Shown here one piece after another: positions 1,609 to 18,415 of a DNA stretch of 64,000 nucleotides. Each line of letters opens with the position of its first letter. Within the stretch, counting starts at the first letter, position 1. A program made the translations under genes and the position numbers. The notes under the pieces are model-generated. The model worked only from the letters and a program-made list of their open reading frames with translations, was not told the DNA's origin and did not search any database. The stretch is from Candidatus Nomurabacteria bacterium (lineage in GTDB: Bacteria > Patescibacteriota > Minisyncoccia > Phycocordibacterales > UBA918), in the NCBI GenBank assembly GCA_023898565.1, contig CP060228.1, positions 368,594-432,593 of the forward strand, in the 5' to 3' direction.

Positions 1609-2349
1609 CTAAATTGCATCGTAATAGCAGAAATTACGACCAGTGGTTGCGTCCGTAAAAAAGACTCCATTAAGTGTGCTTAAACTGCTGGTGCAGTGTG
1701 ATTTTGCAGCACTAAGTTCCATTGTTCCATAGTCATCTTTGATATTTTTTCCAGCAGGCCAGCTAAGACATACTGATCCATTTGGTCCAGAGTATAATTT
1801 TTGTTGTGGCGAGAGTGATGAAATTTTTGCTGGGCAAGAGTTGCTGAATAGTATTTGTTGCTCATTTCCAGCTGATGCAGGCATGGTTTTTGCAGTGACT
1901 CCTGAGGTCGGTGTGGTGGTGGTTATTTTGCTGGTATCAAGGGTTGTTGGAGTGGCTGCTGATCCAGAGTATGTTTTGTTTTTTAGGTGGTCAAAAGTTA
2001 GATTAACATTGGCTGTGTCAGGGTTTACTACGGTTAGAATCAAGACTGCTGCAAGAACCAGCAAGAGTCCAATTAGTGCCCCTTGAATATCCTTCTTTGC
2101 TTCCCCTTTTGAGGTTACTACATCAGTCATCATCCACTTCACTCCAGCGATGATAATCTTAATTACAGCTAGTAGAGCGGCAATGGTGATTGAAAATACA
2201 TAGAGCGCATTAATGTAGCTGTCAAAATCATTGTTTGCATCAACACCAGGAATACCAACAAGTGGGCGGTATACTGTCGGTTCAGCAGCAAAAATGGTGA
2301 GCGGTAAGCTAAGTAGTGCAGTGGCAGTGAGAGTGAATACTTTTTTCAT
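1609..2349 (-). CDS. T4SS pilin-like protein (VirB2/TrbC topology) fused to a Thr-rich linker and a Cys-containing C-terminal domain
   Basis: Signal peptide, then two hydrophobic helices separated by a charged loop (ALYVFSITIAALLAVIKIIIAGVKWMM / TDVVTSKGEAKKDIQ / GALIGLLLVLAAVLILTVV). This is classic VirB2/TrbC pilin architecture. It is followed by a TTTTPT linker and a ~110 aa domain with 4 Cys. Confidence 0.45.
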   Translation of the reverse strand: MKKVFTLTATALLSLPLTIFAAEPTVYRPLVGIPGVDANNDFDSYINALYVFSITIAALLAVIKIIIAGVKWMMTDVVTSKGEAKKDIQGALIGLLLVLAAVLILTVVNPDTANVNLTFDHLKNKTYSGSAATPTTLDTSKITTTTPTSGVTAKTMPASAGNEQQILFSNSCPAKISSLSPQQKLYSGPNGSVCLSWPAGKNIKDDYGTMELSAAKSHCTSSLSTLNGVFFTDATTGRNFCYYDAI

Positions 2350-2359
2350 ATGTAATTGA

Positions 2360-3538
2360 CTATTGCTCGTTACTAAACATCCATAAGTTACCTGTCGCTG
2401 TGTTGGTAAAGTAAATATGAGTGTCGTCTAGATTTGGCACTATCTCCGAGACTTCAATATTTCGTCCAGTTTCTGAACTAATGTCAACCAATTGCGTAAA
2501 TACAGCATTCTCTAAATCAAAGCTCCAGAGATTATCACTGAAGGTTGCTTCACCTTTGTACCAAAGATCAGGCATCTGATTTGAGTTTACATCACTGCTA
2601 CTACCACAAATCAATGCTGTAGTGGTGTACAGCGGCGAACATTTTTCAGGGATAGTACTGAGGAAAATATTGTTTGTCTCTCCAGTCTCTTCATTATACA
2701 AGTATGTATTGTAGCTGCCTTTTTCTTGCTTGCTGTACAACACACCAACACTGTTTCCTGTAGCTGAAATTCCGTAGCCAGCAGCTGGTAAGCGATGTAG
2801 TACACCATTTTTGCTGGCGTACACATACCCCTCAAATTGATTGGTTGCCTTTGGGTACACATAATGAGTTTCGTCCGCAGTTGATCCCCAATCAATAACA
2901 GCTTCTCTAAATGGAACAGTAAAGAGTGTCTTGGCTGTATCGCTTACAGGGTCATATTCTTTTGCGATTACAGTAGCGTTTGTTTTAACTGCGTACAAAA
3001 ATGTGTTATTGGTGGTAACACTGAAGTCTATAATTGGTTCAGTAATAGCTTTAGTCTCAAGTTGATCGGTTGAGCTGCTTAGGGTTCCAATTACAAAATC
3101 TGCACCAATTCCACTACCAGACTGGACAAGTACGTATAATCCGTTAGGCGTAATCGCAGCTTTGAAACTTGAAGGAATAGTGGTAGCTGAGATGCGCTTT
3201 TCCTCCCCTGTTTCAAGATTTAGAGCAAATATGTATCCGGTTCCGGCTGCTACGTAGTATACCGACGGCGATGAGCTCGCATTTTTTTTAACTTCCTGAT
3301 ATCCCACTACTGGTGTGGTGGTTAGTTGACGAAGTCGTTCAGGACCTTCGATATCAACGACAGGTTGTTCGTCATTTTGTATTGGTTCGTATGAGTTACT
3401 GGTGGTATCTCCTAAGTCAATAGTAGTGTAGGTATCATCAGTGCTGTTTGGGTTGCTAAAGAGAATAATGTACACCCAAACTCCTAGTAAAATAAGTACA
3501 ATGATTGCTCCAATAATGATGAAAAGTGGCCGTTTCAT
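2360..3538 (-). CDS. Membrane-anchored hypothetical protein (N-terminal TM, beta-rich extracytoplasmic domain)
   Basis: 392 aa ORF with an N-terminal TM helix and Ser/Thr/Gly/Tyr-rich repetitive beta-like sequence. It sits in the T4SS-like gene run. Confidence 0.5.
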   Translation of the reverse strand: MKRPLFIIIGAIIVLILLGVWVYIILFSNPNSTDDTYTTIDLGDTTSNSYEPIQNDEQPVVDIEGPERLRQLTTTPVVGYQEVKKNASSSPSVYYVAAGTGYIFALNLETGEEKRISATTIPSSFKAAITPNGLYVLVQSGSGIGADFVIGTLSSSTDQLETKAITEPIIDFSVTTNNTFLYAVKTNATVIAKEYDPVSDTAKTLFTVPFREAVIDWGSTADETHYVYPKATNQFEGYVYASKNGVLHRLPAAGYGISATGNSVGVLYSKQEKGSYNTYLYNEETGETNNIFLSTIPEKCSPLYTTTALICGSSSDVNSNQMPDLWYKGEATFSDNLWSFDLENAVFTQLVDISSETGRNIEVSEIVPNLDDTHIYFTNTATGNLWMFSNEQ

Positions 3539-3541
3539 AGA

Positions 3542-4510
3542 CTAGAAATTAACTTGGGTTGCACCTATCGCGCCTTGTAACACTTGGGTTGTATCTCGTA
3601 CATGGAAGCTGAGGTTGAGCACGCCACCAGATCCAGTGCGCTCTAATGTAACTTCGTAAGGGTTTCCTCCTCCAGTTTCAGCTATGGTATTCCCGAGCGT
3701 CCACTCAGTAATGGCAGGATTGTTATAAACCCTTGAGTCAAGGTAGTATGGCTCAGCTGCAACGACCAGGCTATTACCGATGAGTGAGATGCCTTCAGAA
3801 AGGGTTTTTTTACTCATACCAAAGAGAGCACTTACCTCATAGAAATGAATCTCTGGAGCAACTGAGGGGATTGAAATTGATCGGCTGGCAATGACACTGC
3901 CGTCAAGCGTAGCAACTTGGACACTGAGTGTTTCGTTGCTGTTGTTTGTGGTGGTAAATGAAACTTGATTGCGGCCACGGAGTGACCCCCCTTCTATAAC
4001 TTGTTGGCCAAATCGCCATGTGTAGATAAGGTCTGGGTTGCGAAAACCAGCGCCACTAATGAGTGCAGTAGCATTGACGGTGCTGCCAATGCTCGGTAGT
4101 GCTCGTCCAAGATAGTTTTCTGGAACGTGTGTTTGTGGCTCGATGATAATATCGAGGTAGATTGGCCGAATAACTGTCTGTAATGACTCTCGGCCACCGC
4201 CAGAGCGGGTTAAAATTACTTCAACTGATTGTGTTGTGCCGAGAGCGCCAGTCGTTACTTTCGCCTCGCGTTTATTTTCTGCCTCAGGAATAACTCTGCC
4301 GTCTAATACCCAGGTGATGTTTGCGCCGTAGCTACTTCCTCGGTAATCATTAATTGATAGTGTCACCTCTTCTCCTGGTGCTGGATATTTTGGTTGTATT
4401 TCAATACCAAATTCTGGTTGAGTGAAGGTGTTGTTGCTACTAAACTGCGCTGAAGCTGGAATGGCAGCAAGGCTTAAAATAAATATAAAAGTGGTGACGA
4501 TTGTCCGCAT
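3542..4510 (-). CDS. Secreted hypothetical protein
   Basis: 322 aa ORF with signal peptide MRTIVTTFIFILSLAAIPASA. No recognisable catalytic motifs. Confidence 0.5.
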   Translation of the reverse strand: MRTIVTTFIFILSLAAIPASAQFSSNNTFTQPEFGIEIQPKYPAPGEEVTLSINDYRGSSYGANITWVLDGRVIPEAENKREAKVTTGALGTTQSVEVILTRSGGGRESLQTVIRPIYLDIIIEPQTHVPENYLGRALPSIGSTVNATALISGAGFRNPDLIYTWRFGQQVIEGGSLRGRNQVSFTTTNNSNETLSVQVATLDGSVIASRSISIPSVAPEIHFYEVSALFGMSKKTLSEGISLIGNSLVVAAEPYYLDSRVYNNPAITEWTLGNTIAETGGGNPYEVTLERTGSGGVLNLSFHVRDTTQVLQGAIGATQVNF

Positions 4511-4643
4511 ATTAGTAATAATAACAGACGTGAATATGGTTTTGCGTGTTTAATAACCATATTATGTGGGGAAAGTAATCGGGTATATATTCTGTATAAA
4601 CAGCCTATTTTTTGAGGATAGACTGTGGAAATGGTGTGGAATA

Positions 4644-5654
4644 CTATTTTGGATTCTTCCAGACCGCTAATGTCCAGAAAATTGCCCACGGGAGTAGGTT
4701 GAAGATTGGTATTGACAGGCCGATGAATGCTAAAAGCAGCATGATTGGTTTCTGTCCCGAATTTCGCCCAAAAATCGGATTTATGAAAGTGAATTTATAA
4801 ATGAAGTATATAATCAAAAGTTGCAGGAGGAAGAGTCCTAGAAAAAGTCCGTATACTGCAAAAAACATACCTCCTGGGTGTAGATTTCCTAGATCAAATC
4901 CAAAAAATGTTTCACTAATGTAGTTTATTACTTCAAAAATGCTACTAAACACTTTTTTTGCCATGTTGAGTAATGTCACACCAAACCCTCCCGCTTTTTC
5001 TGATTCTACGCTACCGCTGCCAAAGATACTATCAACAGCAATACCAACTCCAAAAAAGACGGCAAGTAAAATACCAAGCGGAAGTTGTATAAAGATGTAG
5101 GCCGGAATCGACCATGACCAGATACTGTATGTTACTGTTGTGGCTTTGAGTTGTTTTGCGCTACGACGAAGAGTACTTGGTTTTCCGACGTGCCGCATTT
5201 GTTGTAGTTTTTTTAAACTACTCTTTCTGCGTGGCTGTGCAAATTCCTCTTCTTCAATGAAGGGTCGTTCTTCTTCAGGTGAGAGCTCTGGTGTTGGTGT
5301 GGCGTTTTGTGTCTCTCCAAGCTGAGTTGGCTGCATGCCTTTAGTGGCGTACTCAGCGATGAAGGCCTCATCAACTGTTTTCCGGTCGCTTCCCCGCTGG
5401 TTTCTTGGTGCACCAGGCATTGCAGAGGTACGAACGTTCTTCGTGATATTCCTTTGCAGAAGATCGCTACGGTCAGCTGAAGTACGTCTTACGCTGCCAG
5501 GCGACGGAACAGTGTTTTTGTTTTGAGTGCTAACATTTCGAATTGTTGATGATTGCCTTGCTAGGCCAATTTTGGTACCGAACTTTGCATCATTAACAGC
5601 TCCGCTAGTAGAGGTTTTTTCTACATTTCTAATTGCGTTTTCGCCAGCTGCCAT
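4644..5654 (-). CDS. Hypothetical polytopic membrane protein (disordered basic N-terminus, ~4 TM C-terminus)
   Basis: 336 aa ORF with a low-complexity Ser/Arg/Thr-rich N-terminal half and a hydrophobic multi-TM C-terminal half. It lies in the T4SS-like cluster. Confidence 0.45.
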   Translation of the reverse strand: MAAGENAIRNVEKTSTSGAVNDAKFGTKIGLARQSSTIRNVSTQNKNTVPSPGSVRRTSADRSDLLQRNITKNVRTSAMPGAPRNQRGSDRKTVDEAFIAEYATKGMQPTQLGETQNATPTPELSPEEERPFIEEEEFAQPRRKSSLKKLQQMRHVGKPSTLRRSAKQLKATTVTYSIWSWSIPAYIFIQLPLGILLAVFFGVGIAVDSIFGSGSVESEKAGGFGVTLLNMAKKVFSSIFEVINYISETFFGFDLGNLHPGGMFFAVYGLFLGLFLLQLLIIYFIYKFTFINPIFGRNSGQKPIMLLLAFIGLSIPIFNLLPWAIFWTLAVWKNPK

Positions 5655-5669
5655 ATTAGTAGCAGTATA

Positions 5670-7466
5670 CTACATTCGTGAAGCTTGCAGTTCTTCTCGA
5701 GCACGCTTAATTTGGAGGAGTTGCGATGGATCTGAGGTGATGATTTGATCTTCAGTGTACGACGCTATCACTTTTAATGCTACGTGTTTTAAGCCTGCAA
5801 AGAAGATACCCTCCCCTACGTTTGATTCTAAAAGCAAGAACTTTTCCTCGTCAGTGAGATTGAATGTTTTTTGAATATTATCAATCGCGGTTGGTGACTG
5901 CTTCATTAAGAACTGGATTGAAGAGTTGGTGATCATCGGCACTCCATATGGTGAGCGAAGGAAGTCGTCCACATCCTGGGTTATGGTGGCGATACCGAGA
6001 TAGTATTTTCGACCACGTTTCGCAAGAGAGAAGAGGAATGAAGCGGTGTCTTCGGATTTCATCATCCACCATGCCTCATCGATTACCATGAGACGTCTTG
6101 CAACGCGCCGTCTGATTGAGCTCCAAATGAAGTTGGTAATGATATACATCGCGATGGTTTTTAGCTCATCTTCCATGTCACGGAGAGAAAACACTACAAA
6201 CTTTTGGTTGATGTCGACGTTGGTTGGCTTATTCATGAAGCCGGCCCAAGTACCCGAAGTATACTTTTGCAGTCGGGTGATAAGTGAAGAGCTGCCGTCC
6301 ATACCAGCTAATACCATTTCGAAGTCAGTCAAAAGCGGTGGTTCCATGTCTCCAAAGTCAGCATCACCGGTGATGTCTTTGAGGGCGTATGTTTCTTGAA
6401 TGGCAAGATCGATTAACGTTTCTTCTTCTGGAGTGAGGCCGCCGAGCATAAGACGGAAAAGGCCTACTAGTTCAATCACATGAGTACGCAGCACATCGTG
6501 CGGATCCTCGTCCTCACTTGGCGGTGGTAGGTCAAATGGATTTACATGGTGGTTTGAAGAGAGTGAAATATTAAAGAAACGACCGCCAGTCGCGTCAGCT
6601 AAATATTCATATTCTCTTTCTGGGTCGAGCACAATAACCTCGGTCCCAAACATAAGCGAACGAAGGATTTCGAGTTTAAGGCCGTATGACTTCCCTGCTC
6701 CAGAGGTGGCGAAAGTCACTGAGTTATAGTTGGTAAGACTGTAGCGGTCGAAAAGTACGAGCGAAGAGTTGTGGCGGTTAATGCCGTACAAAATGCCAGT
6801 GTCCGCGGTTAGGTCGAATGAAGTAAATGGGAAAAAACTTGAAAGTGGTTCTGAGTTGAATTTGCTATGCACCAACAGTTCATCATTGGCGAGCGGCAAA
6901 ATACTCTTGAGTCCTTGCTCTTGTTGGAATAGAGCTGGTTTTACTGCTACGAGACGTGAGTCAAGGATGCCGCGAATTTCATTTTCTACTTTATTGATTT
7001 CGCTTTCGTTTTCGCCGTAAATAGAAAGATAGAAACCAACGTTAAAAAGCCGCTCTTCCGCTTGTTGTAGTTTATCGCGCAGATCTTCTAGGTTGCGATA
7101 CGCTGCTTCAAGTTGCGGGTCGCGTACTTCCCCTTTTTCAGCTTTGATATTGATTTGGCTCTGTACTTCGGCTACTTTCTTTTGGAATTTTTTGAGCGTT
7201 TCAGCTGTGTCGATGGGGTGTACGAAGATTGATACATCTAATTCTTTGGCTAGGTTTAGGACTGGTTCAATCCAGCCATCATTTAGAAAACGCGGGTATG
7301 AAACAGCATAATACACACGAGCATTAATGCCGCTGATGTTAATGCTGCGGGGAGTGATGCTGATTGCTGACGGTGCGATGATGTCGGTTAGAGTGAGTAG
7401 CTGATCGCTCACTTTCTCCTCATTGTTTCCGGTTGATTTTGGTTGTAGTGAATCTAAAAGGCCCAT
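5670..7466 (-). CDS. virB4: VirB4/TrbE/TraC-family conjugal-transfer ATPase (C-terminal 598 aa, contains the ATPase domain)
   Basis: Walker A FATSGAGKSY and Walker B RLMVIDEAWWMM. The overall sequence pattern is that of VirB4/CagE/TrbE ATPases. Confidence 0.8.
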   Translation of the reverse strand: MGLLDSLQPKSTGNNEEKVSDQLLTLTDIIAPSAISITPRSINISGINARVYYAVSYPRFLNDGWIEPVLNLAKELDVSIFVHPIDTAETLKKFQKKVAEVQSQINIKAEKGEVRDPQLEAAYRNLEDLRDKLQQAEERLFNVGFYLSIYGENESEINKVENEIRGILDSRLVAVKPALFQQEQGLKSILPLANDELLVHSKFNSEPLSSFFPFTSFDLTADTGILYGINRHNSSLVLFDRYSLTNYNSVTFATSGAGKSYGLKLEILRSLMFGTEVIVLDPEREYEYLADATGGRFFNISLSSNHHVNPFDLPPPSEDEDPHDVLRTHVIELVGLFRLMLGGLTPEEETLIDLAIQETYALKDITGDADFGDMEPPLLTDFEMVLAGMDGSSSLITRLQKYTSGTWAGFMNKPTNVDINQKFVVFSLRDMEDELKTIAMYIITNFIWSSIRRRVARRLMVIDEAWWMMKSEDTASFLFSLAKRGRKYYLGIATITQDVDDFLRSPYGVPMITNSSIQFLMKQSPTAIDNIQKTFNLTDEEKFLLLESNVGEGIFFAGLKHVALKVIASYTEDQIITSDPSQLLQIKRAREELQASRM

Positions 7467-7475
7467 ATGTGTAGC

Positions 7476-8114
7476 TTAATTATCAATAACCGGTGCTGAT
7501 CCAGTCGGATCGCCTGGGTTGTAGAGGTGGTAATAGAGTTCAACGAGGTCGTCTTTTTGTAGGGTGATAGTGCGGACGCCGACACGAGCGAGTCCTTCTG
7601 TTACCATGCCAACACGCTGTTCAAGTTGGATGCGATGTTCTTCAAATTGTGTATCGCTCGGGAGAGACGATCGATTTTGTCCAGGAGTGAAGAGGCTGGT
7701 GAGTCCTTTGGTAATACTTAACTTGGTTGGAGTATACGGCACAACCACAAAGAAGCTTTTGCTCATTACATCAACATCCTGTGTGAACGTGCGGATAAAC
7801 TCCATATACTCGCGAAGCTGCACGCGCATAAGGTCATTGTCCTGCCCTGCCTCCATTCCAGAGAGAAGGTCTAAATACGGCTCAATATTGAGACGGCGAG
7901 ATTGTACATAAATTTGTAGGGTAAAATCGAGGGTGTTGAGAAATTGTTGAAATTGCAACAAAATTACCTTTTGCTCATCGAGTGATTTAAGGGCGAAATT
8001 GACTGACGACGCCAAAAGCACCATATGCATCTGGCCATTCTTTTGCATCACCACATTATCGTTAATGTCGCGAATCGAAACAAAATCTTGAGTTGCTGCT
8101 TTTGGATTTGCCAT
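7476..8114 (-). CDS. VirB4 N-terminal region encoded as a separate 212 aa ORF
   Basis: The ORF is in the same frame as the 598 aa VirB4 ORF and separated from it only by TAA plus three codons. Together they total ~813 aa, a typical full-length VirB4. The sequence pattern fits VirB4 N-terminal regions; this is inference. Confidence 0.45.
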   Translation of the reverse strand: MANPKAATQDFVSIRDINDNVVMQKNGQMHMVLLASSVNFALKSLDEQKVILLQFQQFLNTLDFTLQIYVQSRRLNIEPYLDLLSGMEAGQDNDLMRVQLREYMEFIRTFTQDVDVMSKSFFVVVPYTPTKLSITKGLTSLFTPGQNRSSLPSDTQFEEHRIQLEQRVGMVTEGLARVGVRTITLQKDDLVELYYHLYNPGDPTGSAPVIDN

Positions 8115-8115
8115 A

Positions 8116-8529
8116 TTATTGTTCGGTCTTTTGGATTGCTTGTAATTCTAGTCGTCTCGCCAAAGAAGCGATGTTTTTCTTCTTTCCTGCACCGGCTGGT
8201 CCATCGCCGGTTGTTTGTGCTGCTGGTGCTGAATTTTTATGTACTACATCTTCATTGCGTCGCCAGAGGTATAGTTTTTGTTTGGTGATGTAGTTGAAGA
8301 GTGCTTCCAAGAAAAATGAGAAAGGGCGATTGTTAACAGGATAGAAAGAAAGTGCTCCAGACAACAGCGCGATTGGAATACCGAGTAGTGTAAACACTAC
8401 TAAGTTGGTGGTAATAAACAAAACTACTGCCATACCAAGTCCGCCACCGAGGTATAAGAATTGTCGCCAAGTAAGTGGGCCGAATATCTTGTCTTCTATT
8501 TCAATAAACTGTGGCACCTCAAAACGCAT
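8116..8529 (-). CDS. PrgI/VirB3-like small membrane protein
   Basis: 137 aa with N-terminal MRFEVPQFIEIEDKIFGPLTWRQFLYLGGG followed by two TM helices. This is the architecture of PrgI-family (VirB3-like) proteins, and it is immediately upstream of VirB4. Confidence 0.45.
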   Translation of the reverse strand: MRFEVPQFIEIEDKIFGPLTWRQFLYLGGGLGMAVVLFITTNLVVFTLLGIPIALLSGALSFYPVNNRPFSFFLEALFNYITKQKLYLWRRNEDVVHKNSAPAAQTTGDGPAGAGKKKNIASLARRLELQAIQKTEQ

Positions 8530-8715
8530 ACACCACCATTATACATGGTGGTGGTGCGTTGGTGTTATGTTGGTGTGCTTACTATCCCCATGAAGGAGCA
8601 CCATCTGTTCCTTCAGCCCACACTTCATAATTGTTCACACGTCCGATGTTTGCTGATTGATTCAGGCACTCATTCCCTGCGGACGCTCGCACTTATGAAG
8701 CGTGGGCTGAAGAGA

Positions 8716-9177
8716 TTAGCGCCCCGTTCGCCCTTCTTTTAGGATTGCTTCTTGAGTCGATGAGTAAACGGTCTCTTCGTTGCCTTGAAGCTTGGCTATA
8801 TCACCCGCCATGGTGCGGACTTGGGGATTTGGCTTTGCTGCTAGATTGCTGGGCTCTGGCGGTACTTGGTCTTTTGCTTCGGCAAGCATTTTCCCATCCA
8901 TGAAATCAATCAAGTCTCCGGTTATTTGTAGGGCTACTTGAGCAGTAACACCAACTTCTGCCTGGAGTGATTGTGGTAATTCAGAGCGGCGACGTAGGCC
9001 AAGCACCGTGTCGCCGGTGATTAACACCAAATGTGCAGTTTTCATATCTCCGAGCTGGTACTTTTTGGCAATAGTCTCTAAGCGCTGGCTACTTTCAGGT
9101 GAACTGCAGAGTTGTTTGGTTGACTCGGACGCTGCTTCATAGGCAGCGTCTCGTTGTTCGTTAGTGATTATTGGCAT
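8716..9177 (-). CDS. Hypothetical cytoplasmic protein in the T4SS-like cluster
   Basis: 153 aa ORF with no TM segments and no recognisable motifs. Confidence 0.4.
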   Translation of the reverse strand: MPIITNEQRDAAYEAASESTKQLCSSPESSQRLETIAKKYQLGDMKTAHLVLITGDTVLGLRRRSELPQSLQAEVGVTAQVALQITGDLIDFMDGKMLAEAKDQVPPEPSNLAAKPNPQVRTMAGDIAKLQGNEETVYSSTQEAILKEGRTGR

Positions 9178-9185
9178 GCTGGTTT

Positions 9186-11546
9186 TTACCTAGTGATCGG
9201 GTTTCCGTTTTGGTCTACGATTGGGTTGCCGCTATTTTGTGACCCCTGAGATTGATTGTTGCCGGTGTTATTCCCGACGGTGTTCCAGTTGCGGGCAGCG
9301 TTAAAGTTGGTGGTGATGTACTGCTTTGCGCTACTATTCTGGCCGCTTAAGATTGCGTCTCGGAGCTGATCGCGCTGTGCTGGGTCAAGCTTCTTATAGA
9401 GCTCATCCATATGTTTTGACTCAAGCTTGTTGATGGCTTCTGGGTTGTTTATGTAGGCTTCAAACGGCACAGCAGCAATCTCAGCTGGCTTACGATCGGC
9501 AAAGAAGGTTTCAAGTTCAGCGCCTTTAAATGCTTCAATCATCTGCTTTTTCCGGGCTCCCTGGTAATCGCCCTTCTGTCCGTCGGTGAAATTATCGCTC
9601 TTCATCAGGTCATCCATTTGCTTTTGGGTGAAGCGGTGGGCGTTTTCGCGAACAAAGTCATCACCGAGGTTTTCAATCTGCTTAGTGGTGAGGTTTTCGA
9701 GAGCTTTAAATGACACTTCCCCATTCTTTTCAACGGCTGCTTTTAGTGCATTTGTGCGAATAGTAGCGAGGTGATCTTTTTGTTCCTGATTGAAGTTCTT
9801 GCTGTTTGCCAAAGACTCATACTGTCCACCCTTAAGTTGACCAACAATCTCAGTGAAGTCGTCGGTGCGCTGGGTGAACATACGTTCAAGCTGTTCAGAA
9901 GTAAGACTGCCGATCTTGCTCTGCATAGCAGCCACGGTTTTGTTCATTTCTTTCATTTCATCAGCTGAAAGCTCAGGAACTTCCTGTGCTGCCCGCATTT
10001 CGGCCACCTGTTCTTGTAGTTTGAGGCGCTCTTCCATATCAATGTGTTCACCGCCCATTTCTACATCACCCCCAGCTAGCTTAGCTTCAGCTGCTTGACC
10101 TTCTTGAACGAGGCGTGCGCGATTTTCGTGTAGGTAGAGGTTGCGTCGTGCGTCAATTCCTTCAGCCACAACATCATTGGCACCAACTTGTGCGTTGATA
10201 GTGTCTTTGCGATTTTGTTCCTCGTCGCGAGTATATTTCATGCCAAACTTGGCGTTCTTGAGCTTGGTGCTACCCTCTCGGCGTAGATCATCAACCACTA
10301 CGCTATTTCCAACTTTTCGAGCCAATTTTCCAGCTACTGTGTTTTTGTTGGCATTTTGCATGCGGGAGATTTGTCGATCAAGAGCGGCTCCAGTGGCGTA
10401 TGAAAGTCGTCGCGCCCCCCGTCCGGCAGTGTTAGCAGCAGCAGATTTGGTGGTTCTGATGGCTGCACGCTGCAGGCTGCGCTGTGCCCGGCCCTGCAAA
10501 TTTTTACCAAAACCAATCATTGTTGAAGCGCCGTCTGCTCCCATTTTATTAGCTACTACTACAGCAGCAATCATAAAGATACAAGCTAACATGAATGGTG
10601 GTAGTGTTGAGCCAAAATTAGTTAAAGTTGCGCTTCCCATTCCAGAAAAAGTTTCTGGATAGTTTGGCTTCTGTCCATTAACACTCATAACTTTTGCCCA
10701 GGCATTAAGCAGGTAGATAGAGAAATAGACTAAAAGCAGGTAGATTGGTGCAAAAAATGATCTACCCAAAAACCCATGCCAGTACTTGCTGGTGATACTA
10801 GACATTTGTGGGAACACCCAGCTTAAGAACATTAGTGGTGACAGCACCATGTACAAACAGAGTGCTGCGTAGCGTATAAAAAGCATAATGGCGCCAGCTG
10901 CAAATACGAAGGCTGTCACAATAAACAGAATCATTGCGCCAAAAATGTACGCATAACCGGCTCCGTCAGTTTCAGTTTTTGGCATGGCGCTATCACCAGT
11001 GCTCAGAATATTTTGAATGCCGAAGGTGTCCATAAAACCAAGGCTAACAGTGAGGTCGCCAGTGCTAGCATCCTTTGGGAAGCCCTTAGCAATTTGGGTG
11101 GCCATGATGTTTGAAAAGTCGACAACTGTTTTGGTGATGTAGAGACTGAAGTTTACGAGGAGAGCGGCCATGATAAGGCTTACGAGCCAGCGTCGAGTAC
11201 CAGGATCATCGCTATTTAAAATCATCTTCAGACCAATAAAGACCAGGCCAAAAATGAAAGTGATGTTAAAAATATCACGTACTGCTACCCAGAGAATATC
11301 TACGGCGCCACCAATACCGCTGGTGAGAAAGTTGGTTCCAAAGCCAACGACGTACTCGTTGACACCCCAGTCAAGCGCAAGCCCTGCCAGACCAACTAAA
11401 CGGCCGAAGAATCCAACCACTAGACTCCACAAAGCCTGCTGGAACCAAGGAGCTTCACTTCCCTGTGCAAAGGACAACAGTGGAACAAGCATCAGCAGCG
11501 TGACGAGGATGGTGATTATGGTGATGTGGTGGGTTCGGCTAGACAT
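9186..11546 (-). CDS. VirB6/TrbL-like polytopic membrane protein with a long coiled-coil / low-complexity C-terminal extension
   Basis: 786 aa. The N-terminal ~350 aa contain multiple TM helices typical of VirB6/TrbL. The C-terminal ~400 aa are charged and Gln/Ala-rich, ending in an Asn/Gly/Gln-rich tail. Confidence 0.5.
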   Translation of the reverse strand: MSSRTHHITIITILVTLLMLVPLLSFAQGSEAPWFQQALWSLVVGFFGRLVGLAGLALDWGVNEYVVGFGTNFLTSGIGGAVDILWVAVRDIFNITFIFGLVFIGLKMILNSDDPGTRRWLVSLIMAALLVNFSLYITKTVVDFSNIMATQIAKGFPKDASTGDLTVSLGFMDTFGIQNILSTGDSAMPKTETDGAGYAYIFGAMILFIVTAFVFAAGAIMLFIRYAALCLYMVLSPLMFLSWVFPQMSSITSKYWHGFLGRSFFAPIYLLLVYFSIYLLNAWAKVMSVNGQKPNYPETFSGMGSATLTNFGSTLPPFMLACIFMIAAVVVANKMGADGASTMIGFGKNLQGRAQRSLQRAAIRTTKSAAANTAGRGARRLSYATGAALDRQISRMQNANKNTVAGKLARKVGNSVVVDDLRREGSTKLKNAKFGMKYTRDEEQNRKDTINAQVGANDVVAEGIDARRNLYLHENRARLVQEGQAAEAKLAGGDVEMGGEHIDMEERLKLQEQVAEMRAAQEVPELSADEMKEMNKTVAAMQSKIGSLTSEQLERMFTQRTDDFTEIVGQLKGGQYESLANSKNFNQEQKDHLATIRTNALKAAVEKNGEVSFKALENLTTKQIENLGDDFVRENAHRFTQKQMDDLMKSDNFTDGQKGDYQGARKKQMIEAFKGAELETFFADRKPAEIAAVPFEAYINNPEAINKLESKHMDELYKKLDPAQRDQLRDAILSGQNSSAKQYITTNFNAARNWNTVGNNTGNNQSQGSQNSGNPIVDQNGNPITR

Positions 11547-11552
11547 AGTGCG

Positions 11553-13322
11553 TTATGGTAGGATTGCGTCCCACTCAGTTTTTGAATTTGTAATATCAGC
11601 TTGTGTGTACAAGTCTAACTTCTGATAATCAGCAATGTAGATTATTTTGAGAGATTCTGAGCTAGCTGCTTCGTAGTTGGTGATAATATCAGTCAGCTTT
11701 GTAATCAGAGTGTTGGTTGTGTCGATAATATTTTGTGCATCGCCGGCAGCGGCAGTTGCGATGCTTGATGAAGCTGCTGGTGTGGTTGATGCACTGGCGT
11801 AGGTCTCAAGTTGTGGTTTGTAGAGCGAAGCGAGGTTCTTGTAGTCTTTTTGAGTTTGTAAATCAGCTTTCATTTGTACCAAAGTAGAATCTACGCTTGA
11901 AGCAGCTGCCTGATTAGCCGTAGTGATCACCGCGTTCCAAGAGCTCTTTGAAGCGTTTATGTCTGATTGTGTATGAAGTGGTAAGGCAGAATAGTCTTCC
12001 ATAACCTTAGCTTGGTCAGTAGCGTTTGTTGCTGCTGAATAATCAGATATTTGACTGTTTAGGTTCAACAAATTGCCTGTGGTGTCAGCAATAACGGTAT
12101 CGGTTTCAATGATAGCTGCGTTGGCAGCGGCTACAACAGAGGCTGAGGCGGTCGTGCTGGCTGCGATTGCTTGAAGTTCAATCTTTTTTGCGATGGCTAA
12201 ATCTCGATAGGCGATTTCGAGATCACGCGCATCTTCAAGTATTTTGAGGCCAGAATTAGCGGAAACAACTGAACTTTCAGACTGCATTTGTGCCAAGTAT
12301 GAGCCGCCGCTGAAGCCGGAATAGGTGAAGCCGGTTCCGCCAGAGAGGCCGAGCAGGCCAGCGGCTCCAGTAAACACAGTTTGTGCGAGCTGACCAAGTA
12401 GAGCAGAGATAATCTCGTTCATTTCATCAGCGGTAACGAGTGATTGACGGCCAGAGTCGAGGTTGAAAGAAAGTGCCTCTTCAATAATTTTCCCGGGCTT
12501 AGTGATGGCACATTCTTCAGTGTCACCATTGGCACCGCTTACTATTTGGCAGATTTCACCAGAAAGGAACCCATCTCCCCACTCGAGCTTAAATGCTTCT
12601 TCTCCCTTAGCATTTAGAATGCGCACGTGAGCACCAGTCTGGGCCGCTAACGTAGCACCATAGGGAGTGTAGGTCTCTGGCTGGGCGGTGATGTCAAACC
12701 AGTCATTCCAGCCACCTTCTCCGAAACTACCCTGTGCTCCGTCGAGGAAGCCGCTGATATTATCGATAATCCCTGAGAGGGTACAGGTTGGGGCTGGTTG
12801 GTCGACGCGGGAGCGTTGATATTGAAGCGCTAGGGCGATTTGGATATCGAGCTTGAACGGGTCACAAAGGAAAGAGCCAAGGCCACCAAGGTTTTGAATA
12901 TATTCCCCCATCACCCTGTCTGCAACGTCAGTTAGGAATCTAGACAAATCTTGTACAAACATTGGACTGCCTTTGAAGCCGGAGTTTATCCAATTCACCA
13001 GACTATCTACCATTGAAGAAATCACCGCTTTAGCAAGGGTCCAAGCGATGCTATCAAGCACGCTTTCCTTAATCCAAAGATTTTCTGTTGCCCACGACGT
13101 GACGTATGACCATCCTTCAATCAGCGTGTTCAAGGCATTAATAAAAATAAGTTCAATATTGTTGAACACTTGGGTGTGCTCTGTTGCCCTATCAACAGCT
13201 CCCCCCGCGTGTGCGTATTGAACCTTGTTCCAGTCCTGTGGAGTATAAGTCGCAGCTACGGCAAAAATCATAAAAATTGATGTAACAAGGACTTTCTTTA
13301 GGTATGTAAAAAAGGTTTCCAT
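11553..13322 (-). CDS. Large secreted or membrane-anchored hypothetical protein with an Ala/Ser/Thr-rich C-terminal region containing an internal repeat
   Basis: 589 aa with an N-terminal hydrophobic segment. Two related ~26 aa segments occur near the C-terminus: EDYSALPLHTQSDINASKSSWNAVI and ADYQKLDLYTQADITNSKTEWDAIL. Confidence 0.5.
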   Translation of the reverse strand: METFFTYLKKVLVTSIFMIFAVAATYTPQDWNKVQYAHAGGAVDRATEHTQVFNNIELIFINALNTLIEGWSYVTSWATENLWIKESVLDSIAWTLAKAVISSMVDSLVNWINSGFKGSPMFVQDLSRFLTDVADRVMGEYIQNLGGLGSFLCDPFKLDIQIALALQYQRSRVDQPAPTCTLSGIIDNISGFLDGAQGSFGEGGWNDWFDITAQPETYTPYGATLAAQTGAHVRILNAKGEEAFKLEWGDGFLSGEICQIVSGANGDTEECAITKPGKIIEEALSFNLDSGRQSLVTADEMNEIISALLGQLAQTVFTGAAGLLGLSGGTGFTYSGFSGGSYLAQMQSESSVVSANSGLKILEDARDLEIAYRDLAIAKKIELQAIAASTTASASVVAAANAAIIETDTVIADTTGNLLNLNSQISDYSAATNATDQAKVMEDYSALPLHTQSDINASKSSWNAVITTANQAAASSVDSTLVQMKADLQTQKDYKNLASLYKPQLETYASASTTPAASSSIATAAAGDAQNIIDTTNTLITKLTDIITNYEAASSESLKIIYIADYQKLDLYTQADITNSKTEWDAILP

Positions 13323-13339
13323 AGGTATTTTGTAATTAA

Positions 13340-14230
13340 TTAACTTTGAAAATCAGGACTAAAAACAACAAATAGTGCGGCAGGATCATCTTTTTTTATC
13401 AGGGGCGCGTAGGGCTCAAGGGAGGCATACATATTTTGCATAGCCAATCCCAAGCCTCGAACATCCTCCTGGTACCGCTTCAGCCTTAAAAGCGCAACAA
13501 CAGGATCGTCCAGGGCGATTGACATGGCTGCAATATCTGCGTGAATAGCAGTAAGCGTGTTTAGGAAGTCAAGGTGCTCCTTAACTAAAAAACTTGGAAC
13601 AGGAACCTTGAGAGTGTCCGTAATGTATCCTTCGTAGGCAACAGCAATGGCTTCTAACTCAGCAATTTTTTCCCTGTTTCCATTCACGACGACATCATTC
13701 ATAAGTGTAAGCTCATTCTCTGTTCCTGGAGTGCTGTTTTCTATTAAAATAGCCGCAAGCGTATTGGCGTAGTTTCGCACGTCTTGTTGATCCCAGTCGT
13801 TCATAATATCAATATCGGGAGTGTCATATAGTTCAATATTTGTTTGTTCAGCTAGGCTATTGACCGTATATTGCACTACTTCTTCTTCTGACTTACCAAA
13901 TGGTCCATAGTTCTTTGAACGAATAACGTCTTCAAGGAAATGAATACTCATTTGGCCAGTGAGCGTGGTTGGTTGCTCGTAGGTGCTGCTAGCTGAGTTA
14001 TTCAAAACGATCGGTTCTGTTGTCACGAAGTCGTCCCGCCAGTCTTCGATTCCGTTTTGATCTTCGTCATTGACTGCAATTGCTACACGTTCCGGTGCAA
14101 CCGCTCCAATAGCAGCTGGCTGTGAGACGGTCCGAGGATTATTGAGGCTGCTTAGTGTGTAGGCACCACCAATTAACGCAAAACCAATGATGGTCGCGCC
14201 AACGATTTTTGGGTTAATTTGCCCCTGCAT
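13340..14230 (-). CDS. Membrane-anchored hypothetical protein
   Basis: ORF 13340-14254; the likely start is the internal Met (MQGQINPKIVGATIIGFALIGG) at 14230. Single N-terminal TM, acidic extracytoplasmic domain. Confidence 0.45.
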   Translation of the reverse strand: MQGQINPKIVGATIIGFALIGGAYTLSSLNNPRTVSQPAAIGAVAPERVAIAVNDEDQNGIEDWRDDFVTTEPIVLNNSASSTYEQPTTLTGQMSIHFLEDVIRSKNYGPFGKSEEEVVQYTVNSLAEQTNIELYDTPDIDIMNDWDQQDVRNYANTLAAILIENSTPGTENELTLMNDVVVNGNREKIAELEAIAVAYEGYITDTLKVPVPSFLVKEHLDFLNTLTAIHADIAAMSIALDDPVVALLRLKRYQEDVRGLGLAMQNMYASLEPYAPLIKKDDPAALFVVFSPDFQS

Positions 14231-14320
14231 ACAGTAATAAGTATAGCAGTACAAATTCCTAATATCTGCAAAATATACTCACAAGTGTGTAAGTCTGTGA
14301 ATAACTCTGGGGATATGTGG

Positions 14321-15133
14321 CTAATTAGTGGTGTTTAGAGCATGTAGAGCTTGCGTAAGTTCAATCCACTTGGCAAGCGGGACATCTTCAGCGCGCACAT
14401 CAAGAGTGAGTCTGGTTTTTGTTAAGGCGACTTCAGCTGTTGTTCTTGGAAACGATTTGGAGAGATTGCCAAGGAGTTGTTTTCTTTTTTGCGCAAAACC
14501 CAGATGGATAACCTTAAAAAAATCGGCGTGGGAAATTTCTCCGACACGGTTCTTATGAATGTTTTTGACAGCAACAATAGCGGAGTCAACTTTTGGTGGA
14601 GGAGAAAAGTGGCTTCGTTTCACCGTACATATATATGAAGGATCGCCAAACACTTTGACTGAAAGCGAAAGCAGGGATTCTTTTTTATCGCGAGCGATGC
14701 GTTCTGCTACCTCTTTTTGAATTAAAAATACGAGCGTTTTAGGCTGGTTGGTAGTGTCGAGGAGTTGTCTAAAGAGATTCCCAGTAAGATAGTATGGGAT
14801 GTTAGATATGACGATATAGCTATGATTGGCAAGGCCAAATTGAGCAGGCTTAATAATTCGAGCGTCATGATGGTGGAGAGTTAGCTGACCGCGAGCAATT
14901 GCGTCAGCAAAAGTTTCTCGAAGAGACATAATTGCTCGCTCGTCAGCCTCCACCGCGATTACTCTTGCTCCTCGCGCCAAAATCTCTCTCGTCAGAGCGC
15001 CTGTCCCTGGACCAATTTCAAGCACTGTTTCTCCAGCAATGTCCCCCGCTGCAGCACACATTTGCCGTGGTACATAGTCACTGTTTAGAAAATTTTGTCC
15101 TAAGGACTTTTTGTGCTCGAATTTTTCAGCCAT
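14321..15133 (-). CDS. rsmA: 16S rRNA (adenine1518/1519-N6) dimethyltransferase
   Basis: KsgA signature residues LGQNFL, EIGPGTGALT and NIPY. Confidence 0.85.
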   Translation of the reverse strand: MAEKFEHKKSLGQNFLNSDYVPRQMCAAAGDIAGETVLEIGPGTGALTREILARGARVIAVEADERAIMSLRETFADAIARGQLTLHHHDARIIKPAQFGLANHSYIVISNIPYYLTGNLFRQLLDTTNQPKTLVFLIQKEVAERIARDKKESLLSLSVKVFGDPSYICTVKRSHFSPPPKVDSAIVAVKNIHKNRVGEISHADFFKVIHLGFAQKRKQLLGNLSKSFPRTTAEVALTKTRLTLDVRAEDVPLAKWIELTQALHALNTTN

Positions 15134-15199
15134 AGTGATTCAAGCCTACGGTATTTAGTGTAAATAAACAAGAAAAACCATGGTTGCCCGTGATTTTTC

Positions 15200-17158
15200 C
15201 TAATCTAGATAGACAGTAGTTTCGTAACCAGAACTATGACCACTTTCTGGCTCGGCGTGTTCAACATATTCAGTACTGATATCATTGAGGAATTCCGACG
15301 GCACGTTTACGCGTTGGCTACCAAAGATGGTGCGCATATGAGCGTAGGTGAGAAAGACCTTCTTTTCAGCACGTGTGAGTGCTACATAGAAGAGTCGGCG
15401 CTCTTCTTCATTATCAATCCGTCCGTCATCGAGTCGTTCGTGCGGGAATAGTCCCTGTTCAAGGCCGGTGATAAACACGTAGGCGAATTCTAATCCTTTC
15501 GCGGCATGAATGGTCATGAGACGAACTGCGTTTTGCTCTTCTTTTTCTTTTAGCTCATCTTGGTCACTTTGGAGCGCGGCGTTCTCAAGGAGTTGTTCAA
15601 CCGCTTCACTTGGTTCGAGGTGATTAAAGCGGCTTGCCAAAGTGACAAGTTCGCGGAGGTTTTCAAGTCGCTCCATTGCTTCCTCTGTTCCTTCTTCGCG
15701 AAGGGATCCTTCTATTTGGCTCCGCGACATAATGAATTTAATAGTGTCAGACAGTGGCTTTTCAACCGCTGCCTTTGCTATGTCCATCATGATATCGTCA
15801 AACACTTTTACTTTGGCAGCGGCTCCAGCGTTGAGCTCACTGCGTTTTCCTTCCACTACCTTCAGCATTGTCACTTTACCAATGCCGCGAGCAGGTTCGT
15901 TGATAATGCGAGTCAGATCAGCATTACTGCCGGGGTTTAGTGCTAGTCGGAGATACGACAAAACATCCTTAACTTCCTTTCGCTCAAAGAACTTAGTACC
16001 AAGGAGTTGGTATGGCACATCCATATTGATAAAAGCTTCTTCAAGTGAGCGAGATTGGAAATTAGTGCGGTAGAGAACAGCTATTGCAGCCGGATCTGCG
16101 CCATCAGCAATCAGGCTTTTGGCGGTTAAAGCGATATATTCAGCCTCGTCCGGTCCGGTCATTCCGGCATAGAGGGTGATTTTCTCGCCATCGTGGTTAT
16201 TGGTGAAGACATTCTTTTCAACGCGCTGTTTATTTTTTTTGATTACCTCATTTGAGGCGGCAATAATAGTTTTGGTTGAACGATAATTTTCTTCAAGAAG
16301 AATCGTTTTAACTCGTGGGGAATGGCGTTCAAATTGCAGTACATTTTTGATGTCGGCGCCCCGCCAAGAGTAAATATTTTGGTCGATGTCGCCGACGACG
16401 CAAATATTTTGGTCTTCGCTTGCGAGTAGCTCCATGATTGAAAACTGCACGCGGTTTGTGTCCTGGAATTCATCGACGTGAATATACTTATAGCGCTGCT
16501 GCAGTGTTTCGCGAATATCTTTATGGTTGCGTAGCAAGCGCAAGGTTTTGGCGAGCAAGTCATCGAAATCAAGAGCTTGTTCACTATGGAGTATCGTTTC
16601 ATATTTTTCCCACACTTCAGCGGCGACTTGTTCAGGGAATGAATTAGCAGCGTCCTTAAATTCAAGCACGGTCTTCGCGTCGCCTTTAGCGCGGGAAATT
16701 ATCGATAGCATTTTGCGTGGCTCAAATTCTTTCGGGTTGTACCCCGCTTGTTCAATCGCTTGCTTAATCGCTTTTTGACTGTCGCTGCGATCGTAAATGG
16801 TGAAGTGGCGCCGCAGATTCATGGTTTCATGGAATTCACGCAGCAGGCGGACGCCGAGTGAGTGAAACGTGGTAACAACCGGGTAGCTATCGATCACCGC
16901 TCGATCAGAGGGGAAGTATTTTTGTGTTAGTGCGACCACACGCTCCCTCATTTCTTTGGCAGCTTTATTGGTAAAAGTGACCGCGAGAATGTTGTGAGGA
17001 GCTACTCCTTGGTGAATGAGGTGGACAATGCGATGGGTAATGACACGTGTCTTTCCCGATCCGGCGCCAGCGAGAATCATTAGGGGTCCTTCTGTGTATA
17101 AAACAGCTTCCTTTTGTGGGTCGTTGAGGCCGTCAGTGTATGCTTGTGGTGCAGTCAT
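15200..17158 (-). CDS. UvrD/PcrA/Rep-family ATP-dependent DNA helicase
   Basis: GAGSGKTRVITHRIVHL Walker A and downstream UvrD-family helicase motifs. ORF 15200-17197; the probable start is Met at 17158 (MTAPQAYTDGLNDPQKEAV). Confidence 0.85.
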   Translation of the reverse strand: MTAPQAYTDGLNDPQKEAVLYTEGPLMILAGAGSGKTRVITHRIVHLIHQGVAPHNILAVTFTNKAAKEMRERVVALTQKYFPSDRAVIDSYPVVTTFHSLGVRLLREFHETMNLRRHFTIYDRSDSQKAIKQAIEQAGYNPKEFEPRKMLSIISRAKGDAKTVLEFKDAANSFPEQVAAEVWEKYETILHSEQALDFDDLLAKTLRLLRNHKDIRETLQQRYKYIHVDEFQDTNRVQFSIMELLASEDQNICVVGDIDQNIYSWRGADIKNVLQFERHSPRVKTILLEENYRSTKTIIAASNEVIKKNKQRVEKNVFTNNHDGEKITLYAGMTGPDEAEYIALTAKSLIADGADPAAIAVLYRTNFQSRSLEEAFINMDVPYQLLGTKFFERKEVKDVLSYLRLALNPGSNADLTRIINEPARGIGKVTMLKVVEGKRSELNAGAAAKVKVFDDIMMDIAKAAVEKPLSDTIKFIMSRSQIEGSLREEGTEEAMERLENLRELVTLASRFNHLEPSEAVEQLLENAALQSDQDELKEKEEQNAVRLMTIHAAKGLEFAYVFITGLEQGLFPHERLDDGRIDNEEERRLFYVALTRAEKKVFLTYAHMRTIFGSQRVNVPSEFLNDISTEYVEHAEPESGHSSGYETTVYLD

Positions 17159-17274
17159 GTCGGGACATGATAACACAACGAACAGTTTCACGATCAATCA
17201 AAATAGGTAATGGTACGCTCAGATGTCAACTATAAAAAATCCTTGAAGATGCTAAAAGTAAGTTACCTACAAAT

Positions 17275-17706
17275 ATGTTCCACTCATACGTTCGCTATTT
17301 AAAGCGGTCACTCTATGCGGATAAGTACGATATTGTTCGTCCCTACCATAAGGTGATTGATTTGCTTATCAAGTTAGCTGGTCTCGCTTTTGCATTTACG
17401 GGAGCGTATCTTATTTACACAGCTTCATTTTGCTACTTCAAGCTACACTACATAGAGGTTAGTCCGACGTGCCAAATGATATTTACTCAAATTAATATAA
17501 ATGGTTTTTTGGCTAGTCGTGATGTTGTTGAAGTGTTGGTGATGCGTTGGTTGTGGGGTGCGGGGAATCTGTTGATTGCGCTCTTCGCGTCACAGGTTCT
17601 GATTGTACGTCATTTAAATGAAACGCTGCCGGATCATATATACTTACGTTGTTTTGCTGATGAAGAGCATAAGCGAAAGCGGTTGTCGATTGATGATACA
17701 CTGTAG
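17275..17706 (+). CDS. Hypothetical small membrane protein
   Basis: 143 aa with 2-3 predicted TM helices. First gene of a three-gene plus-strand operon. Confidence 0.4.
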   Translation: MFHSYVRYLKRSLYADKYDIVRPYHKVIDLLIKLAGLAFAFTGAYLIYTASFCYFKLHYIEVSPTCQMIFTQININGFLASRDVVEVLVMRWLWGAGNLLIALFASQVLIVRHLNETLPDHIYLRCFADEEHKRKRLSIDDTL

Positions 17707-17729
17707 GCACGCAACCGTATCGTGAAGCG

Positions 17730-18371: not shown

Positions 18372-18415
18372 GTTACGGCGGGCAATAATACGTGTAGAAG
18401 TGATACCATACACAC

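Follow-up and report, generated by a model that had tools for sequence, protein, structure and literature searches.

The chromosomal Patescibacteria type IV secretion system in a Candidatus Nomurabacteria genome: a conserved core beside dnaA with variable pilin and accessory proteins

Quinonero-Coronel et al. (2025, Microb Genom, PMC12102498) found the VirB4 ATPase of type IV secretion systems (T4SSs) in 2,417 of 3,035 Patescibacteria assemblies (∼80%), nearly all of these proteins falling into a single clade within MPF-FATA, and catalogued the system in 2,407 assemblies. Patescibacteria virB4 loci carry adjoining genes for TrsD, VirB3/PrgI, VirB6, and VirB2-like pilins. Very few relaxases are found, and genes for VirD4-like type IV coupling proteins (T4CPs) are present in most genomes of the phylum, mostly far from virB4 (PMC12102498). 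In Paceibacteria and Microgenomatia, the commonest neighbors of virB4 are dnaA, dnaN, rnpA, ksgA, and rpmH (PMC12102498). Here we describe such a cluster in a 64,000-nucleotide stretch of the chromosome of a Candidatus Nomurabacteria bacterium (assembly GCA_023898565.1, contig CP060228.1, positions 368,594 to 432,593), referred to below as the window. The cluster, located at 1609–14230 on the minus strand, encodes a VirB2-type pilin, a VirB4 divided over two genes, PrgI/VirB3, a VirB6-like protein, and six lineage-specific proteins. It is the known chromosomal T4SS of Patescibacteria in its Paceibacteria layout, which was described between 2023 and 2025 and is thus rediscovered here; no new kind of system is proposed, since the cluster, its composition, the absence of a relaxase, and the origin-proximal site have already been published (PMC10633639, PMC12102498, PMC12857230). 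That the cluster both is this system and serves as a host-contact pilus or channel, leaving aside the direction of transport, is in our judgment very likely. The additions to the published picture are modest and consist of the folds of two accessory proteins (g2 and g3), a large unannotated protein family (g10), a variable pilin ectodomain, and segment swaps between near-identical strains. The system itself matters by its presence in ∼80% of Patescibacteria genomes and its essentiality in the sole lineage tested, and it is the leading candidate for the exchange of material between these biosynthetically crippled epibionts and their hosts.

Set against the Patescibacteria-clade T4SS of PMC12102498, the window shares the MPF-FATA-type VirB4 (as judged by the NF045971 score and sequence identity), TrsD and PrgI/VirB3 beside virB4, a VirB6 homologue, a VirB2-like pilin, and the dnaA, dnaN, rnpA, rpmH, and ksgA setting, and is likewise without a relaxase, a T4CP near virB4, or VirB7/VirB9/VirB10. 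Nothing essential differs, and the window represents one case of that system; the published account reports no adhesins, nor does it report the propeller, tandem Ig-like protein, g10, long pilin extensions, or block swaps seen here. A second point of comparison is the T4SS of Southlakia epibionticum (SEML1_0006–0019), for which transposon sequencing (Tn-seq) found most genes to be essential for epibiotic growth, with the NTF2-like gene SEML1_0012 non-essential (Wang et al., 2023, Cell, PMC10633639). The Saccharibacteria cluster lies directly after dnaA-dnaN-recF on the opposite strand, and its core order is VirB6, NTF2-like, x, PrgI, TrsD-like, VirB4, x, lysozyme-like, exported Ig-like (PMC10633639). 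The window shares with the S. epibionticum ML1 system (SEML1_0004/0006–0019) the dnaA-adjacent, opposite-strand location, the collinear core, PF18895 pilins, and the lack of a recognizable relaxase or coupling protein within the cluster, and g3 of the window parallels the essential exported Ig-like protein SEML1_0005. The ML1 system differs in that its pilin genes number six in tandem and that it encodes an NTF2-like (VirB8-like) protein along with lysozyme-like and DD-peptidase proteins, whereas the window cluster has a single pilin with a long extension, neither a hydrolase nor an NTF2-like protein, and an additional TolB-like propeller, g10, and g11. Essentiality is known for the Saccharibacteria system only.

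The cluster consists of 11 co-directional genes arranged head to tail, transcribed in the order g11, g10, VirB6-like, g8, PrgI/VirB3, TrsD-like, VirB4, g4, g3, g2, and pilin. It is flanked on one side by dnaA and rpmH-rnpA-yidC and on the other by ksgA (14321–15133) and uvrD/pcrA (15200–17197). The first 34 codons of dnaA, cut by the left end of the window, occupy 102–1 on the minus strand and are followed on the plus strand by rpmH (316–465), rnpA (492–812), and a short yidC (825–1553). Near-identical contigs encode a complete 461-aa DnaA and then DnaN, and in contigs with an identical VirB4 the ∼4 kb to the left of the window start holds dnaA, dnaN, and a penicillin-binding protein gene. The original prediction, that a ∼12 kb, strictly co-directional T4SS-like gene run lies directly beside oriC and continues straight into ksgA and uvrD, is borne out in its gene order, with the difference that the conserved cluster is one gene longer and reaches 14230 with g11. 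Its position beside dnaA and rpmH-rnpA-yidC is likewise upheld; oriC itself is inferred, from two TTATACACA boxes in the dnaA-rpmH spacer (213–232) and a GC skew that is positive over the entire window, both of which would fit an origin at the left window end.

The T4SS core of the cluster is identified most clearly by VirB4 (5670–7466, minus strand), a 598-aa P-loop ATPase that matches the NCBIfam CD1110-family VirB4 model NF045971 (355.5 bits against a cutoff of 325, E 5.6e-106), the Pfam P-loop_TraG family PF19044 (E 1.4e-25), and the VirB4 structure PDB 4AG5 (E 8e-40), and whose translation retains intact Walker A (SGAGKS) and Walker B (VIDEAW) motifs. Immediately upstream, a 212-aa open reading frame (ORF; 7476–8114, minus strand) encodes a TrsD-like, free-standing N-terminal VirB4 domain. 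It aligns with residues 99–233 of the Mbov_0397 VirB4 (E 5.8e-8) and with residues 1–113 of the CD1110-family VirB4 among NCBIfam models, carries the precomputed annotation PF26593 (TraC-like), and has no match among PDB sequences. Since this ORF corresponds to the N-terminal part of VirB4 and the ATPase gene to the remainder, VirB4 is encoded in two genes, and since the split is kept in 84 of 84 related loci (the TrsD-like protein measuring 206–227 aa except for one truncated 144-aa call), it is no frameshift artifact. PrgI/VirB3 is a small membrane protein of 137 aa (8116–8529, minus strand) that matches PF12666 above the cutoff (E 6.2e-10) and was found in 83 of the 84 loci.

The two remaining core proteins are weaker matches when taken from the window by themselves. 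The extended VirB6/TrbL-like polytopic membrane protein (786 aa; 9186–11546, minus strand) has a signal-like N-terminus and, by transmembrane (TM) scan, ∼7 TM segments followed by a ∼450-aa hydrophilic C-terminal region, and it reaches E 1.9e-3 with PF04610 and E 7e-4 with the Mbov_0396 family NF045889. The 246-aa VirB2/TrbC-type pilin-like protein (1609–2349, minus strand) matches NF045849 and PF18895, the latter just under the gathering score (E 4.6e-5). Both assignments are confirmed by their orthologues, of which 11 of 60 VirB6-like proteins match TrbL (best 3.6e-8), and 57 of 61 pilins match PF18895 (T4SS_pilin), with 11 matching TrbC/VirB2. The three neighboring Mycoplasma families Mbov_0395, Mbov_0396, and Mbov_0397 (a pilin-like protein, a TM protein, and VirB4, from an integrated conjugative element, ICE) each give a sub-threshold match to the cluster. 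The predicted VirB2-like pilin, VirB4, PrgI/VirB3, and VirB6-like protein are thus all supported by Pfam, NCBIfam, or PDB matches together with those of the orthologues. The claim of at least six uncharacterized secreted or membrane proteins needs amendment: five of the six unassigned proteins are indeed membrane or secreted proteins, but g8 is soluble, and the 212-aa ORF is the TrsD-like VirB4 domain.

Comparison across the phylum indicates how the cluster is inherited. Of 600 candidate VirB4 relatives, 570 were confirmed, and among the matches listed VirB4 is 66–92% identical over its full length in at least 80 Patescibacteria species-representative genomes, labeled as Paceibacteria/Parcubacteria, Kaiserbacteria, Nomurabacteria, Saccharibacteria (many of them third-party annotation, TPA, assemblies), or simply Patescibacteria. 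When 17 window proteins were searched by tblastn against 84 loci, following up the suggestion that synteny beside rpmH-rnpA-yidC be examined in relatives, the order rpmH-rnpA-yidC, pilin-g2-g3-(g4)-VirB4-TrsD-PrgI-(g8)-VirB6-g10-(g11), ksgA-uvrD proved to be shared by at least ∼80 species. Variation is local: some species have the pilin gene between g3 and g2, and g4, g8, and g11 are present only in closer relatives. VirB4 identity co-varies with that of UvrD (rho 0.88), KsgA (0.83), and YidC (0.75), and VirB4 is the best conserved gene at the locus, with a median identity of 71–76% against 65% for UvrD, 50% for KsgA, and 45% for YidC. Because its position and order are fixed in at least ∼80 species and it co-diverges with housekeeping genes, the cluster is a host machine that is passed on vertically and kept under strong purifying selection, and not an ordinary ICE.

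The proposal that the cluster is an integrated conjugative element, or the decaying remnant of one, draws on the homology of its core proteins to those of MPF-FATA conjugation systems (pGO1 TrsD, pCF10 PrgH/PrgI/PrgJ, and the CD1110-family VirB4 of CTn2), which provide homologous VirB4, TrsD-like, PrgI, and VirB6-like proteins, and of the Mycoplasma ICE. Those systems are mobile and transfer DNA, and their gene sets include a relaxase, a T4CP, VirB1-type hydrolases, and VirB8-like proteins, all of which are absent from the window cluster. In the 64 kb, Pfam scans of the window ORFs of at least 150 aa, minus five short or overlapping ones, revealed no T4CP/VirD4, relaxase, or VirB11, and Pfam and NCBIfam scans of the same ORFs revealed no component of the outer-membrane core (VirB7/VirB9/VirB10). 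The sole tyrosine recombinase of the window is Xer-like and is encoded at 28664–29581, 15 kb from the cluster, and att-like flanking repeats amount to chance-level matches of 16–33 nt around it. The ∼4 kb to the left of the window, inspected for a relaxase or VirD4 gene just outside it, contains no relaxase, T4CP, integrase, or att repeat. The reading frames are all intact, the VirB4 motifs are conserved, and the GC content of the cluster (0.43–0.48) falls inside the range of the window. With the same neighbors retained across the species compared, an ICE or its remnant is essentially excluded, and the earlier claims that the region lacks an integrase, relaxase, VirD4, VirB11, or flanking repeats, and that it is host-encoded rather than conjugative, find support in the scans, the fixed position between yidC and ksgA, and the co-divergence of VirB4. 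Judging by the homologies of its core, the cluster appears to derive from a monoderm MPF-FATA conjugation apparatus that has lost its DNA-processing parts.

The pilin-like protein combines a conserved core with a highly variable C-terminus. It is composed of a signal peptide, a two-helix hydrophobic hairpin, a Thr/Ser-rich linker, and a C-terminal domain with four Cys residues, and the signal peptide, an LVGIPG motif, and the two hydrophobic helices with a basic loop between them are well conserved among orthologues. Orthologue length ranges from 111 to 473 aa as a result of a C-terminal extension containing 0–21 Cys residues (residues ∼125–246 in the window protein, encoded at 1609–1980), which is predicted from topology to be extracytoplasmic. 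The related locus L076 (14792–15778) has an SLT lytic transglycosylase domain as its extension (E 4e-6, above cutoff), and that of L034 (15299–16270) gives a weak CHAP-like match, so that the hairpin looks like a carrier of variable ectodomains. A core-profile search of all window ORFs returned 1609–2349 as its sole match, with no second pilin gene or pilin array.

The unassigned proteins were searched with profiles built from orthologue alignments of related loci. Encoded next to the pilin, g2 (392 aa; 2360–3538, minus strand) has an N-terminal membrane anchor and an extracytoplasmic domain that its 63-orthologue profile relates to TolB-type β-propellers (E 8e-6 to 3e-5 with 11 PDB sequences); it contains an invariant Cys pair (C300/C311) and was found in 68 of 84 loci. 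The secreted g3 protein (322 aa; 3542–4510, minus strand) carries a signal peptide ending ...PASA|Q and tandem Ig-like domains, its 69-orthologue profile matching the Ig-like domains of Hoc (PDB 3SHS, E 1.5e-6), and it was found in 77 of 84 loci. The g4 protein (336 aa; 4644–5654, minus strand), with a basic disordered N-terminal half and three to four C-terminal TM helices by TM scan, has no family match in Pfam or NCBIfam and is limited to a close subclade (20 of 84 loci), distant loci having no gene at that position. Equally without a Pfam or NCBIfam match is g8 (153 aa; 8716–9177, minus strand), a soluble and poorly conserved protein detected in 17 of 84 loci, whose position is occupied by different genes in other species. 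The g11 protein (296 aa; 13340–14230, minus strand) is bitopic, with an N-terminal TM helix and an extracytoplasmic domain; it was considered as a VirB8-like protein and rejected as such, the domain being an all-helical four-helix bundle instead, and its profile has no match among PDB sequences.

The largest accessory protein, g10 (589 aa; 11553–13322, minus strand), is bitopic with one N-terminal TM helix and comprises a conserved N-domain of ∼330 aa with four near-invariant Cys residues and a variable, Ala/Ser/Thr-rich C-terminal part. The N-domain defines a family of 5,230 representatives at 50% identity (E<=1e-3), or 2,184 at E<=1e-30, which lacks a Pfam domain and is not named in any source; g10 itself matches nothing in Pfam or PDB, including by profile search against PDB sequences, and an AlphaFold2 (AF2) model of the N-domain from a 61-sequence alignment was unusable (mean predicted local distance difference test, pLDDT, 43). 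Among 45 orthologues, four carry discoidin domains in the C-terminal part, two have Ig-like domains of the bacterial-surface type, and PKD or Big_7 occurs in one each, which makes g10 a candidate for a surface component or adhesin. Surface modules of this variable sort (lectin, Ig, and Cys-rich), together with the finding that VirB4 alone is enough for pilus biogenesis in known systems (PMC12102498), could also be explained by an adhesion-only organelle, in which a pilus and adhesins mediate host attachment with no transfer of substrate. We consider this unlikely, given that these bacteria already adhere by means of type IV pili and that the cluster keeps, in conserved form, an extended VirB6 channel protein. 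A type IV pilus locus begins at the right edge of the window itself, where a T2SSE ATPase (61085–62833) is assigned to the PilB type because of its MshEN domain. The accessory folds and the g10 family, like the pilin extensions and the strain-level block swaps, offer leads for work on host specificity, for annotation, and for the design of experiments.

Variation at the level of strains is concentrated in discrete blocks. Four contigs (L081, L082, L083, and L084) are 97–99% identical to the window across most of the locus, and unalignable blocks interrupt this identity at 1617–1826 (the pilin C-domain), at 4883–5622 (the N-terminal half of g4), and at 9015–9544 and 9926–10233 (g8 and the C-terminal region of VirB6). 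The pilin C-domain is only 39% identical between near-identical strains whose pilin cores are 100% identical, and the N-terminal half of g4 has no detectable similarity to that of a near-identical strain but shares 46% identity with its counterpart in another species (L025). The latter resemblance suggests that the blocks were changed by cassette exchange and not by local mutation. Because K/R-rich residues follow the final TM helix of VirB6, its long C-terminal region may be cytoplasmic, and some variable parts therefore need not be surface-exposed.

A mechanism can be proposed from these components. The VirB6-like channel protein, PrgI/VirB3, and the two-piece VirB4 motor (TrsD-like N-domain plus P-loop ATPase) constitute a membrane translocon, the Sec-exported VirB2-type pilin is the likely polymer subunit, and the anchored TolB-like propeller, the secreted tandem Ig-like protein, g10 with its variable lectin/Ig ends, and the four-helix-bundle protein make up the outward-facing part. 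VirB4, docked on PrgI and VirB6, would extract membrane pilin and assemble it into a pilus or tube that, with the variable surface modules, may contact or penetrate the host cell in recognition or wall penetration, and macromolecules could then pass through the structure without a relaxase or a cluster-encoded coupling protein. In a cultured relative, tubular structures that are possibly T4SS pili are reported to penetrate the host, and host RNA to be taken up by a mechanism left unresolved (bioRxiv 10.64898/2026.06.21.733656). Import of material from the host, be it nucleic acid or other cytoplasmic macromolecules, is tentatively favored here, as somewhat likelier than effector export though short of probable, on the basis of the ComB/Ced-like composition of the cluster, its housekeeping-like conservation, the metabolic dependence of these bacteria on a host, and the host RNA uptake in the preprint. 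A more specific version is possible but speculative: an import device, or "feeding tube," in which a VirB4-driven VirB2-type tube would pierce the host envelope and draw in host RNA or other cytoplasmic macromolecules, with host range set by exchangeable surface cassettes comprising the Cys-rich or enzymatic pilin C-domains, the lectin/Ig ends of g10, and possibly the variable g4 and VirB6 segments. Recombination would swap these cassettes even where strains are otherwise 97–99% identical.

Several points weigh against a host-contact pilus that conducts macromolecules. A VirB2-type filament may not easily accommodate an extension of ∼130 aa on every one of its subunits, and the pilin-like protein could for this reason be a membrane-anchored carrier and not a polymerizing pilin. 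No VirB8-like (NTF2) component and no peptidoglycan hydrolase were found inside the cluster, and both the direction and the nature of the cargo are argued purely from analogy. We know of no demonstration of pilus formation by a monoderm T4SS. The absence of a T4CP, moreover, holds for the window and the ∼4 kb to its left, out of a genome of ∼0.95 Mb. At 19690–20700, ∼5.5 kb beyond the cluster, a protein with two LysM domains and a Peptidase_M23 domain is encoded, a possible stand-in for a VirB1-type wall hydrolase.

The same apparatus could run in the opposite direction, exporting Sec-exported or cytoplasmic proteins (toxins, hydrolases, or host-manipulating factors) into or onto the host in the manner of the T4CP-less Ptl or Brucella VirB systems. 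Export is the usual direction of T4SSs, protein export was proposed for the Saccharibacteria system by Wang et al. (PMC10633639), T4CP-less exporters are known (PMC12102498), and the SLT and CHAP-like hydrolase domains on the pilin C-terminus in two related species would suit such a role. The cluster yielded neither a candidate effector nor a secretion signal, however, and the housekeeping-like conservation of VirB4 and its ∼80% presence in Patescibacteria fit a core nutritional role better than variable effectors. We regard an exporter as possible, if doubtful.

Helicobacter pylori ComB and archaeal Ced are chromosomal DNA importers without a relaxase, coupling protein, or VirB11, built from a minimal VirB2/VirB3/VirB6/VirB4-like set. 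The VirB2/VirB3/VirB4/VirB6 set of the window mirrors that of ComB minus its outer-membrane parts, as well as that of Ced, and their composition as a chromosomal host function is alike, with no direct homology past the shared T4SS core. A DNA-uptake (competence) machine of this type, importing DNA from the environment or the host for transformation or nucleotides, could also be read into a weak partial match to CedB (E 7.9e-10), a ComM/YifB gene at 20743–22251, and the linkage of T4SS loci in class ABY1 to comF, recG, and radA (PMC12102498, which also mentions the Ced system). Neither comEC nor comF was found in or beside the cluster by the Pfam scans of window ORFs. ComB works with ComEC across a diderm envelope. 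In the one Patescibacterium tested, the essential function of the T4SS can be separated from competence, which depends on ComEC: transformation of S. epibionticum needs ComEC and type IV pili, and deletion of comEC kills competence with viability unaffected (PMC12857230), while the T4SS is essential (PMC10633639). The tolerance of comEC loss where the T4SS is indispensable argues against plain DNA uptake for transformation and against a tie to ComEC that is indispensable, and we consider a competence machine improbable.

Uptake of host RNA, as favored above, gives some interest to a region further along the minus strand, where a polynucleotide phosphorylase (PNPase) gene (24488–26653) has a 4-nt overlap with the gene for a 614-aa unannotated single-TM protein (22647–24491); a 2026 preprint (bioRxiv) links PNPase and host RNA feeding in the phylum. 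An NYN-domain RNase gene (26799–27419) follows the PNPase gene, and RNase Y is encoded at 52476–54005. The 614-aa ORF was considered as a divergent T4CP and rejected, because a Walker A motif is missing and just one TM helix is present.

Signals for expression of the cluster were also sought in its intergenic regions. A promoter-like site on the minus strand (TTCACA-18-TATATT, 14272–14301), identified by consensus match only in the 90-nt gap between ksgA and g11, probably starts the T4SS transcription unit. The ATG of g11 has a TATACT box 9 nt upstream of it, and TATAAT- or TATACT-like boxes occur 7–9 nt ahead of the ATG of g11, prgI, g4, and g3; no Shine-Dalgarno motif precedes any cluster gene or neighbor in the start-codon upstream regions of 1609–17197. 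The absence of Shine-Dalgarno motifs and the proximity of these −10-like boxes to the start codons hint at leaderless or very short-leader transcripts. At the other end of the cluster, a bidirectional terminator-like hairpin (1583–1597), with T-runs on both strands, separates the convergent yidC and pilin genes.

The 186-nt spacer between g8 and prgI (8530–8715, minus strand) would encode a highly structured intergenic RNA, as judged by its inverted repeat and minimum free energy (MFE). It contains a ∼100-nt near-perfect hairpin and a second hairpin containing TGTATAAT and ending 1 nt before the prgI ATG, and its MFE is −83.8 kcal/mol (z −7.9). An Rfam search of the whole window returned tRNAs only, and a permissive search of 8450–8780 gave no match. 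Equally strong yet non-homologous hairpins occupy the prgI spacer in two of 12 other species with a short spacer (L004 and L011), and given these non-homologous counterparts no conserved RNA family is proposed.

Two further features of the window lie outside the cluster. Two DnaA boxes 20 nt apart, one perfect (TTATCCACA) and the other with a single mismatch, are located at 41717–41745, a long way from dnaA and ∼60 nt downstream of a tRNA gene. Past uvrD, a ThiF-family E1-like protein is encoded at 18416–19270 and is preceded by two unannotated ORFs of 143 and 213 aa, and the region as a whole (17275–19270) could be a small ubiquitin-like or defense-type module.

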